A stretch of 64,000 bases of DNA, taken from NCBI RefSeq assembly GCF_003334405.1, contig NZ_QOWM01000009.1, one strand, 5' to 3'. This document shows, in pieces, positions 10,839-13,737 of this stretch. The DNA comes from Escherichia coli (GTDB lineage: Bacteria; Pseudomonadota; Gammaproteobacteria; Enterobacterales; Enterobacteriaceae). The notes beneath the pieces were generated by a model that was not told where the DNA came from, searched no databases, and saw only the letters and a program-made list of their open reading frames with translations. How positions within the stretch are numbered: the stretch's first letter is position 1; each line of letters begins with the position of its first letter. The position numbers and the translations under genes are program-made.

Positions 10839-13037
10839 TTATCTCCTGCGCAACAATCTTAACGCATTCGCTGTCACCAGCACCGTCGCCCCCGTATCTG
10901 CCAGCACTGCCAGCCACAACCCGGTCATCCCTAACAGCGTGGTGACGAGGAAGATCCCTTTCAGCCCCAGCGCAATAGTGATGTTCTGGCGGATATTGGC
11001 GTGAGTGGCGCGTGCCAGTTCAATCATTTGCACCAGGCCGCGCAGGTGGTTATGGGTTAATGCTGCGTCGGCGGTTTCCAGCGCCACGTCTGTGCCGCTA
11101 CCCATTGCAATCCCGATGGCGGCAGCTTTCATCGCTGGCGCGTCGTTAATACCGTCACCGACCATCGCCAGCGGCGCATGTTGATTCAGCCCGGTCACCG
11201 CTTTGACTTTATCTTCCGGCAACAGGCCCGCTTTAAACTCCAGCCCCAGCTCCCCGGCAATTGCCGCCGCTGCGCGTGGATTATCGCCGGTGAGGATCAC
11301 CCCTTTGACGCCCAGCGCGTTCAGTTCACTGATGGCAGTTGCAGCATCGGCGCGCAGGGTATCCTGTAACGCAATGACACCAAGCACGTCATCGTTACGT
11401 ACTACCAGCACTACCGTTTGCCCGGCGCTTTCCAGTTCGTTAATTAAACCAGTAAATGCATCAGCGGGATGTTTCCCGGCAGCGCAAATCAATACGCGCT
11501 CACCGTTAACCTGCGCTTCAATGCCAGACCCGACCAGCGCCCGCTGTGATTCGGCGGTGGGAATGGCGAGTTCAGCAACCTGTGCTTCGCGTACGATGGC
11601 TTGCGCCAGTGGATGCGTCGCGCCTTGCTCGACCGCCGCCGCCAGTGTCAGCAGTTCAGATTCACTAATACCCGTTGCCGGATGAATCGCGGTAACGCGC
11701 GGTTTACCGACGGTCAGCGTACCGGTTTTATCAAACGCCACCTGAGTAACACGACCCAGCTGTTCCAGCGCCGCTCCGCCTTTAATCAACGCCCCACGAC
11801 GCGCTGCCGCCGCCAGCCCGGAGGTAATCGCCGCAGGCGTTGAGATAACTAACGCACACGGGCAGCCAATCAGCAGCAGCGTCAGCCCTTTATAAATCCA
11901 CTCCTGCCAGCTGGCGGCAAACAGCAGCGGTGGCACCAGCGTCACCAGCAGAGCGACGGCCATAATCGCGGGCGTATAGATACGGCTGAAACGGTCGATA
12001 AACCGCTCAATGGGAGCGCGACGCTCTTCGGCTTCTTCGATCAGTTTCAGAATCCGGTCAATGGCGCTGGCTCCCGGTTCTGACAGCACTTCCAACGTCA
12101 CCAGACGGTCTACGCTGGTGGCACCAGCAGGGACTTTATCGCCCGTTGCGCGCTCCACCGGAATGGATTCGCCGGTCAGGGCGCTTTCATCAAAACTGGC
12201 AAACGGTGAGAGCAGTTTACCGTCGGCAGGCAAACGCCCACCTGCGGCGACTTCAATCACATCGCCAGGGCGCAGGCTGTTAATCGCCACCTCTTCCCGC
12301 TCACCCTTACGCAGGCGCGTGGCGGTTTCTGGTTTCAGCGCCATTAACGCGCTAACGCCCTGACGCGCGCGGCTGGCGGCCCAGCCTTCCAGTCGTTCAC
12401 CAATCAAAAACAGCAGCAACACCATCGCAGCTTCAGCCGTTGCGCCAATAAACAGTGCACCAATAGCGGCTACGCTCATTAAGGTTTCAATGGCGAAGTA
12501 GCTGCCGGATTTGATCAACCGTAATGCCTGACGAGCAATCGGGTACAGCCCAACCAGCGTGGTCGCGATAAACGCCAGTTGCCCGAACGGATGATTGAAC
12601 TGCTCCAGACCCCAGCTGATTGCCATCATCACGATTAGCGTAATCAGCGGCAGATTCTCTTTCAGGCGTGATGCTTGCGGTTCTTCGGCGGCCTGTTCAT
12701 CGCGCAGGGAATAGCCTGCTTTTTGCAGCGCAGATTCAACTTGTGCACGAATGTCATTGTCGGCATCGACCACCAGTTTTTCGGTGGCGAACAACACCTG
12801 CACCTGATTCACGCCTGCAAGCTGGCGCACGGCATTTTCTACCTTGCGCGCACAGGCGGCGCAGTCCATGCCGCTGACTTTCCAGCTATAGCGGGTGCCG
12901 GAGACGTTTTCAGAGAGAGTTGGCGTGCTGGAACATGCGCCGTCGCAGCAACAGTCGTTGGCGTTCTGTACCGTGGTTAGCGGTTTGAACGCAGCAAATT
13001 GAGGGGCTTTCTTGCCGTGATTGTCAGGAGTCGACAT
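10839..13037 (-). CDS. zntA: Zn/Cd/Pb-translocating P-type ATPase
   Basis: 732 aa; N-terminal Cys-rich CCCDGAC and GMDCAACARKVE heavy-metal-associated motif; CPC in TM6 (LIGCPCALV); DKTGTLT phosphorylation motif; GDGINDAPA. Confidence 0.95.
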   Translation of the reverse strand: MSTPDNHGKKAPQFAAFKPLTTVQNANDCCCDGACSSTPTLSENVSGTRYSWKVSGMDCAACARKVENAVRQLAGVNQVQVLFATEKLVVDADNDIRAQVESALQKAGYSLRDEQAAEEPQASRLKENLPLITLIVMMAISWGLEQFNHPFGQLAFIATTLVGLYPIARQALRLIKSGSYFAIETLMSVAAIGALFIGATAEAAMVLLLFLIGERLEGWAASRARQGVSALMALKPETATRLRKGEREEVAINSLRPGDVIEVAAGGRLPADGKLLSPFASFDESALTGESIPVERATGDKVPAGATSVDRLVTLEVLSEPGASAIDRILKLIEEAEERRAPIERFIDRFSRIYTPAIMAVALLVTLVPPLLFAASWQEWIYKGLTLLLIGCPCALVISTPAAITSGLAAAARRGALIKGGAALEQLGRVTQVAFDKTGTLTVGKPRVTAIHPATGISESELLTLAAAVEQGATHPLAQAIVREAQVAELAIPTAESQRALVGSGIEAQVNGERVLICAAGKHPADAFTGLINELESAGQTVVLVVRNDDVLGVIALQDTLRADAATAISELNALGVKGVILTGDNPRAAAAIAGELGLEFKAGLLPEDKVKAVTGLNQHAPLAMVGDGINDAPAMKAAAIGIAMGSGTDVALETADAALTHNHLRGLVQMIELARATHANIRQNITIALGLKGIFLVTTLLGMTGLWLAVLADTGATVLVTANALRLLRRR

Positions 13038-13072
13038 GGCATCCTCCGGTTAAGTTTTTTCTCATTAACCGA

Positions 13073-13104
13073 AGGATACACTCTGGAGTCGACTCCAGAG
13101 TCAA
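13073..13104 (-). promoter_or_regulatory. zntA promoter with ZntR (MerR-type) operator: -35 TTGACT, 20-bp spacer, dyad ACTCTGGAGTCGACTCCAGAGT, -10 TATCCT
   Basis: Reverse complement of 13073-13104 reads TTGACTCTGGAGTCGACTCCAGAGTGTATCCT; 22-bp perfect palindrome at 13080-13101; 20-bp spacer is a MerR-family hallmark. Confidence 0.85.
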
Positions 13105-13110
13105 GTTTTA

Positions 13111-13737
13111 TCAGAGATACAGCGAGCGGACGATCAGGAAGTGACCGGCAAAGTAGCAGGCCGCAGCAATCGCGTTATCCGCACGGAAGCGTCGGCGATA
13201 GTGGCTCCCCAGCCAGACAAAGTTACTGATAAACAGCAACGAAGCGCCAACAAACGCAGAGAGCGCCGGAGCGGTCGGACGGAAGAACCACAGTTCACCT
13301 GCCAGCCACACCATCACCAGCGTCATGCCGATAAACGTGCAGATAGGCCAACGGTACTCTTCCAGGCGCGTCCAGATAATCGCCAGTAACAGCGCACCCA
13401 GAACCAGCAGCACCAGTGGTAGAGGCCAGAAGAAAGAGAGCGTCATCTGACTGGCGAAATAGATGGTGTACAGCAGGTGCGAGAGGAAAAACGCGCCGAT
13501 GGCGTACATCAGACGTTGACGTGGCAACAGGGTTAGCGCATCGCCCAGCAGTGAGGCGCACAGCCCTGCCAGCACCAGATAGCTAATGGCGTCGAACATC
13601 GGCGCTTGCCAGGCCAGTAACAGCAGGAGAAGAAGGGTTAACGGTTTAAACACCCAGCGTTGCCAGGTTGGCCCACGATACGATGCATCCACAGATAGCC
13701 ATGCGGAAAGACAGACAGCGATAAACGACCAAAGCAT
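13111..13737 (-). CDS. yhhN: YhhN-family inner membrane protein
   Basis: 208 aa hydrophobic ORF; K-12 synteny. Confidence 0.8.

Follow-up and report, generated by a model that had tools for sequence, protein, structure and literature searches.

PzntA and its ZntR operator in the yhhN–zntA gap of Escherichia coli

The gap between yhhN and zntA in the window (the whole stretch of E. coli DNA analysed here, 64,000 nucleotides) is assigned, with a probability of about 0.97, to PzntA, the sigma-70 promoter of zntA, with a single ZntR operator. The original prediction, which had read the site as a ZntR-controlled zntA promoter, is supported. PzntA is an object already known in detail, with published work by DNase I footprinting, in-vitro transcription and reporter assays, and the site matches the published promoter exactly. 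Observations made in this analysis comprise the promoter layout in the sequence, the assignment of the locus, the identity to the ZntR consensus and the deep conservation; ZntR binding, DNA distortion and zinc induction at PzntA are established knowledge, taken from the literature and applied to an identical sequence. The promoter and ZntR operator of E. coli K-12 were reportedly described by Brocklehurst et al. and by Outten et al., both in 1999.

Reading of both strands gave a gap of 73 bp (13038–13110) between the yhhN stop codon and the zntA ATG. On the minus strand, the TGA of yhhN is followed by TAAAAC, TTGACT, the spacer CTGGAGTCGACTCCAGAGTG, TATCCT and a 35-nt leader with GGAGGA, which ends at the ATG of zntA. 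The reverse-strand promoter string originally claimed, TTGACTCTGGAGTCGACTCCAGAGTGTATCCT, is present to the base at 13104–13073. The features of the promoter and its two neighbouring genes are as follows.

13111..13113, minus strand: stop codon TGA of yhhN, 6 nt before the -35 hexamer (ORF 13111–13737, co-directional with zntA)
13099..13104, minus strand: -35 hexamer TTGACT of PzntA, read directly; the published -35 is identical (PMC3431237)
13080..13101, no strand assigned: ZntR operator, perfect 22-bp dyad ACTCTGGAGTC/GACTCCAGAGT, centre between 13091 and 13090
13079..13098, minus strand: spacer CTGGAGTCGACTCCAGAGTG, 20 bp, read directly and compared with 13 orthologous promoters
13073..13078, minus strand: -10 hexamer TATCCT, read directly; its last base lies 35 nt ahead of the zntA ATG
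13065..13067, minus strand: expected transcription start, inferred from promoter geometry (6–8 nt past the -10)
13042..13047, minus strand: Shine-Dalgarno sequence GGAGGA of zntA, within the 35-nt leader
10839..13037, minus strand: zntA coding sequence (732 amino acids plus stop), Zn(II)/Cd(II)/Pb(II) P-type ATPase; ATG at 13037

The ORF 3' of the site reached 1447.5 bits with the NCBIfam model NF033775 ("Zn(II)/Cd(II)/Pb(II) translocating P-type ATPase ZntA", cut-off 1240) and is likewise annotated as zntA in RefSeq. Over an 801-bp query covering the site, the yhhN-zntA regions of E. coli K-12 MG1655 and of many other strains showed 100% identity, so that the promoter belongs to zntA as had been claimed. 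Judged by its sequence, the window is E. coli K-12-like. The yhhN-zntA region is chromosomal in all complete E. coli genomes searched (5426/5426), with a median of one place per genome. A gene for a ZntR-like protein was not found within the 64-kb window by tblastn (best E = 0.5) with a ZntR sequence as query, residues 43–141 of which match PDB entry 1Q08 with 204.7 bits. The absence of zntR from the window implies that ZntR acts in trans, and in E. coli zntR adjoins arfA elsewhere on the chromosome (PMC10107115); it is usually located apart from zntA (PMC1526738).

The palindrome of 22 bp put forward originally is exact. The repeat finder returned it as repeat I2, with arms of 11+11 nt (13080–13090 and 13091–13101), zero gap and 100% complementarity. 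It shares 3 bp with the end of the -35 hexamer and stops 1 bp short of the -10, and the earlier description of the dyad as filling the spacer therefore stands in so far as the dyad sits between the hexamers, but has to be amended for the 3-bp overlap with the -35. The dyad centre lies 14 bp past the first base of the -35 hexamer and thus 2 bp upstream of the middle of the spacer. All 22 of 22 positions match the published ZntR consensus ACTCTGGAGTCGACTCCAGAGT, which was described as a "22 bp palindrome" in a "20 bp promoter spacer" (Permina et al. 2006, PMC1526738).

Within the window the 22-mer is unique at up to 3 mismatches (0/100 shuffles matched) and is the longest perfect palindrome, the runners-up having 14 bp. 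Palindromes of at least 22 bp occurred in 4/200 first-order Markov simulations of 64 kb, corresponding to p ~0.02 for length alone. In an architecture scan for a -35-like hexamer, a gap of 19–20 bp and TAnnnT, with dyad symmetry counted over 11 pairs, PzntA was the only site with 11/11 pairs in the window, and no such site was obtained in 100 simulated windows. The proposed use of the site as a positive control for motif finding is borne out by this single match in 64 kb, provided that spacers of 19–20 bp are allowed. PzntA may serve as a calibration point in that a textbook MerR-type promoter was recovered exactly from raw sequence. A generic sigma-70 scan limited to spacers of 16–18 bp found no promoter in the yhhN-zntA gap; this follows from the 20-bp spacer of PzntA, is expected of a MerR-type promoter and is no evidence against a promoter. 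Scans restricted in this way miss PzntA entirely, as do scans that assume an operator centred in the spacer, owing to the offset of the dyad centre.

For the comparison with other species, zntA upstream regions were gathered with a ZntA protein probe, independently of the palindrome. The contig scan with ZntA yielded mostly distant P-type ATPases and five useful loci; protein searches and contigs added the enterobacterial promoters, and the sample contains no Klebsiella, Serratia or Yersinia sequence. At a threshold of 99% identity, which a 73-bp sequence passes only without any difference, the gap was found in 5370/5426 complete E. coli genomes; the flanking 801 bp reach this threshold in only 1075. 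The one gap variant inspected differs by a single A in the A-run of the leader, outside the promoter core. The promoters of other species compare with that of E. coli as follows.

E. fergusonii, Salmonella enterica, Citrobacter werkmanii and C. koseri: 32-bp core identical to E. coli
Enterobacter sp. Bisph1: dyad 22/22; -10 is CATACT
Photorhabdus: TTGACT - CTGGAGTAGGCTCCAAAGTG - TAGAGT
Xenorhabdus bovienii: CTGGAGTTTACTCCAGAGTG - TAGAGT
Providencia: CTGGAGTCAACTCCAAAGTG - TAGACT
Proteus mirabilis: CTGGACTCTACTCCAAGCTG - TAAAGT; dyad only 6/11 symmetric
Vibrio bivalvicida: TTGACC - TTGGAGTAGGCTCCAAGGTT - TACACT
Shewanella: TTGACC - TTAGACATTACTCCAAGGTT - TATAGT

The arrangement TTGACY-20 bp-TAnnnT with a co-varying dyad was also found in Enterobacter, five Morganellaceae genera, Vibrio and Shewanella. 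The over-long spacing claimed for PzntA, exact at 13098–13079 in the window, recurs in 13/13 orthologous promoters, all of which have an invariant TTGAC with T or C as sixth base of the -35. In Photorhabdus, Xenorhabdus, Providencia, Proteus, Vibrio and Shewanella, TTGACY-20 bp-TAnnnT and CTGGA/TCCA are kept in a gap that is otherwise unalignable; for the Morganellaceae compared with E. coli, the same holds for TTGAC, CTGGA, CTCCA and the 20-bp spacing. The two Vibrio half-sites are altered jointly at outer positions (ACCTTGGAGT/ACTCCAAGGT, 9/11 symmetric), which is what co-evolution of operator and protein would predict. The original prediction had named a lack of conservation of the palindrome in other enterobacterial zntA promoters as evidence against it; the site was kept in every orthologous promoter examined.

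The published counts of the spacer disagree. PzntA has been described with a -35 of TTGACT and a spacing of 20 bp, an exception to the 19 bp of other MerR-family promoters (PMC3431237), while its spacer was counted as 19 bp elsewhere (PMC9189660). The sequence comparison leads us to favour 20 bp, since TAnnnT is present at 20-bp spacing in 12/13 sequences (the exception being CATACT) and at 19 bp in 0/13.

According to the literature-derived mechanism, the 20-bp spacer would set the two hexamers too distant and out of phase for RNA polymerase, which would account for low basal activity. A dimer of ZntR, a MerR-family protein encoded elsewhere on the chromosome, would occupy the 22-bp dyad between the hexamers. 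Zn(II)-bound ZntR is expected to distort the operator DNA, to bring the hexamers into register and in this way to activate transcription, and metal-free ZntR would have little effect or repress slightly. DNase I footprinting of MerR, CueR and ZntR showed coverage of the -35, the spacer and the -10 (PMC3431237), and one dimer of Salmonella ZntR is bound per site upstream of zntA (PMC5709419). A PzntA reporter was weakly repressed at low zinc and approximately 10-fold activated at high zinc in a ZntR-dependent manner (PMC9189660). Structural evidence for the DNA-distortion mechanism of the MerR family comes from complexes of CueR, BmrR and EcmrR (PMC9909328). In the copy of the PDB searched, ZntR is represented only by the 1Q08 fragment, which starts at residue 43 and is missing the N-terminal part, and no DNA complex was found.

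The PzntA/ZntR pair of E. coli K-12 has the same locus, a dyad matching in 22/22 positions, the -35 TTGACT and the 20-bp spacer, and no difference to it was found. The archetype of the family, the PmerT/MerR operator of Tn501 and Tn21, is similar to PzntA in its -35 TTGACT, in a dyad placed between the hexamers and in an over-long spacer, and it likewise depends on metal-dependent distortion or underwinding of operator DNA and not on recruitment. In proteobacterial MerR promoters the spacer measures 19 bp and the palindrome is of the 7-4-7 type, whereas the spacer of PzntA measures 20 bp and its 11+11 dyad is uninterrupted. The offset of the dyad centre is presumably shared by PmerT, in which case the additional base pair in the PzntA spacer would fall between its dyad and the -10. 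A further difference is that merR is usually divergent from its target, while zntR is unlinked to zntA. PcopA/CueR of E. coli resembles PzntA/ZntR in the MerR-family mechanism, the unlinked regulator and the efflux gene for a P-type ATPase, but has a 19-bp spacer and a dyad ACCTTCCC-(5)-TGGAAGGT (PMC1526738). For CueR, structures with RNA polymerase and promoter exist (6LDI, 6XH7).

A second inverted repeat (I1 of the repeat finder, long and imperfect, 13039–13079, minus strand) joins the -10 hexamer to the ribosome-binding site. Its arms are the following.

13065..13079, minus strand: 5' arm GTATCCTTCGGTTAA, with all of the -10 hexamer inside it and located upstream of the expected start
13039..13053, minus strand: 3' arm TTAACCGGAGGATGC, which contains GGAGGA and ends 1 nt before the ATG

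In RNA of the zntA strand, GUAUCCUUCGGUUAA (13079–13065) pairs with UUAACCGGAGGAUGC (13053–13039) in 15 pairs, two of them G.U. The fold was calculated at -21.3 kcal/mol (z = -6.9), and 0/200 shuffles were as good. Folding from 13081 gave z = -6.9, compared to z = -1.06 from 13072, where the 5' arm is truncated. RNA from the expected start (~13066) is missing the 5' arm and leaves the Shine-Dalgarno sequence unpaired (z = 0.19), whereas the modelled yhhN read-through RNA forms two adjacent hairpins, that of the ZntR palindrome and the second one (-44.2 kcal/mol, z = -6.5), with the Shine-Dalgarno sequence buried. The second hairpin could thus form only in RNA begun upstream of PzntA, that is, in read-through from yhhN. 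The terminator scan found no minus-strand intrinsic terminator between the yhhN stop and zntA (13038–13113), and the -35 hexamer begins 6 nt past this stop, so that transcription of yhhN presumably runs on into the ZntR operator and zntA.

Compatible with the assignment to PzntA, the same region might also encode a structure acting in yhhN read-through RNA, a possibility that we rate as rather unlikely. In its favour are the strength of the fold and the unpaired Shine-Dalgarno sequence in RNA from the expected start, and also the conservation in Enterobacteriaceae, where the stem is kept in 6/6 members examined (z = -5 to -6.3). At T13072, Salmonella, C. koseri and Enterobacter have a C, which turns the G.U pair of E. 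coli into G-C, in keeping with selection acting on RNA of the sense strand. A Morganella contig from the metagenome pattern scan (L166), encoding a ZntA 96% identical to that of M. morganii, has the -10 TACACT followed by TCCT, which pairs with GGGAGGUGU at the Shine-Dalgarno sequence. Compared to TATCCT/AGGATG of E. coli, its Shine-Dalgarno region GGGAGGTGT corresponds to two fully compensatory pair changes, at -10 positions 3 (U-A to C-G) and 4 (C-G to A-U). In array data of Yersinia pestis, yhhN-zntA is given as one co-expressed unit (PMC2231364). Against a second use of the region, read-through from yhhN in E. coli is hypothetical, the start site is inferred from geometry, and both arms are constrained by their own functions as -10 and Shine-Dalgarno sequence. 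Moreover, in Xenorhabdus, Photorhabdus, Proteus, Vibrio and the contig L153 the stem begins in or at the -10 and falls short of the Shine-Dalgarno sequence, and in Shewanella the comparison of folds and complementarity found no stem starting at the -10 hexamer. The own-versus-foreign probe test of the hairpin was clear in Enterobacteriaceae, Xenorhabdus, Morganella and L153, but not in Proteus, Photorhabdus, Providencia and Shewanella.

The putative function of the second hairpin would be to hide the ribosome-binding site in read-through RNA, and we tentatively consider, as a doubtful proposal, that the yhhN-zntA gap carries a second layer of control by which only transcripts from PzntA are translated. 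Transcripts entering from yhhN would fold the zntA ribosome-binding site into the 15-bp stem, while those driven by ZntR from PzntA would begin within the 5' arm, on its loop side, and remain open to translation. Under this scheme, zinc-loaded ZntR would be strictly required for the synthesis of ZntA, despite the lack of a terminator between yhhN and zntA. If functional, the hairpin would insulate a regulated gene from upstream transcription without a terminator, and a double duty of TATCCT as anti-Shine-Dalgarno sequence would account for the unusual, non-consensus but conserved -10 hexamer. The searchable literature yielded no description of a -10/Shine-Dalgarno hairpin of zntA, which is not proof that none exists, and this hairpin is the sole item here that might repay further work. 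For the second hairpin alone, the nearest known counterpart is the fold-back inhibition of IS10/Tn10, reportedly described by Davis, Simons and Kleckner in 1985 (cited in PMC13181058), in which sequence upstream of the element's own start is said to complement the ribosome-binding site, so that it is sequestered in transcripts from outside and not in those from the native promoter. The complementarity at zntA is strong and co-varies, and the likeness presupposes the expected start site and read-through from yhhN. Unlike IS10, zntA is a chromosomal metal pump gene behind a co-directional gene, and its -10 hexamer itself serves as the 5' arm.

It is very improbable that the palindrome of the ZntR operator is primarily an RNA hairpin, namely a terminator or 3'-end structure of yhhN or of an antisense transcript. 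The terminator scan does flag 13080–13101 on the plus strand, where the stem is followed by CAAGTTTTAT, but on this strand there is no gene to terminate at the palindrome. The yhhN stop lies only 9 nt upstream of the palindrome, no other minus-strand terminator is present between yhhN and zntA, and the palindrome forms a 9-bp stem in the modelled read-through RNA; on the minus strand, that of yhhN, however, the stem is followed by GTGTATCCTTCGG and no T-run. An intrinsic terminator at the palindrome was rejected as a candidate because of the missing U-run on the strand of the gene to be terminated. The arms are kept as sequence, with CTGGA/TCCA invariant, and the central 4 bp drift with pairing unconstrained, which is the pattern of a protein site and not of an RNA stem. 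In addition, the site is kept in Xenorhabdus bovienii although yhhN is missing upstream. The search of Rfam 15 gave no match above threshold, only a chance one to mir-1179 (20.4 bits, E = 0.26), for which the gathering score is 80. That the palindrome arose by chance beside fortuitous hexamers, for instance around the SalI site GTCGAC, has a negligible probability: a perfect palindrome of at least 22 bp does arise somewhere in ~2% of simulated 64-kb sequences, but no comparable one flanked exactly by a 5/6 -35 and a TAnnnT -10 occurred in 100 simulated windows, and the position directly upstream of zntA, the identity to the published operator and the conservation from E. coli to Vibrio, which already refutes this reading, stand against it.

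A sequence resembling a third half-site, GTCGACTCCTGA (13035–13024, minus strand, repeat I3), overlies the zntA start and matches the right half-site GTCGACTCCAGA in 11/12 positions. It is probably a coincidence and was treated as such. The sequence is kept only in Escherichia, where in E. coli it coincides with Ser-Thr-Pro codons; Salmonella and Citrobacter diverge after GTCGAC, and it is absent from Enterobacter sp. Bisph1 and the Morganellaceae.

The pattern scan of metagenomes returned mostly MerR-type promoters from soil, located ahead of regulator genes, and only three loci were linked to a clear relative of ZntA (58–61% identity over nearly the full length). A common form in soil metagenomes is TTGACT-CTGGACTATACTCCAGGGTG-TAGCTT with a 20-bp spacer, directly ahead of genes starting MQIG.VAKK.GLS (L094–L097, L103, L113–L116, L122–L124, L129, L134, L136, L139, L140, L143, L146, L158, L160, L161, L164 and others). 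From their sequence start, these genes look like MerR-family regulators, and the arrangement suggests a large group of autoregulated relatives that would use a ZntR-like operator.

The gene order around zntA varies. In Xenorhabdus bovienii (L084, 1258–1501), yhhM and yhhN are missing between yhhL (DUF1145) and zntA, and promoter and operator are complete. The stretch between zntA and tusA differs among species: it contains an ORF of 164 amino acids with no Pfam match in E. fergusonii (L082, 3811–4305), a DctP-family gene in C. koseri (L083, 3790–4773) and a Transposase_31 (Rpn-like) gene in Providencia (L086, 4033–4935). In Proteus (L085, 3978–5391), a gene for an RND pump is located downstream, in place of tusA.
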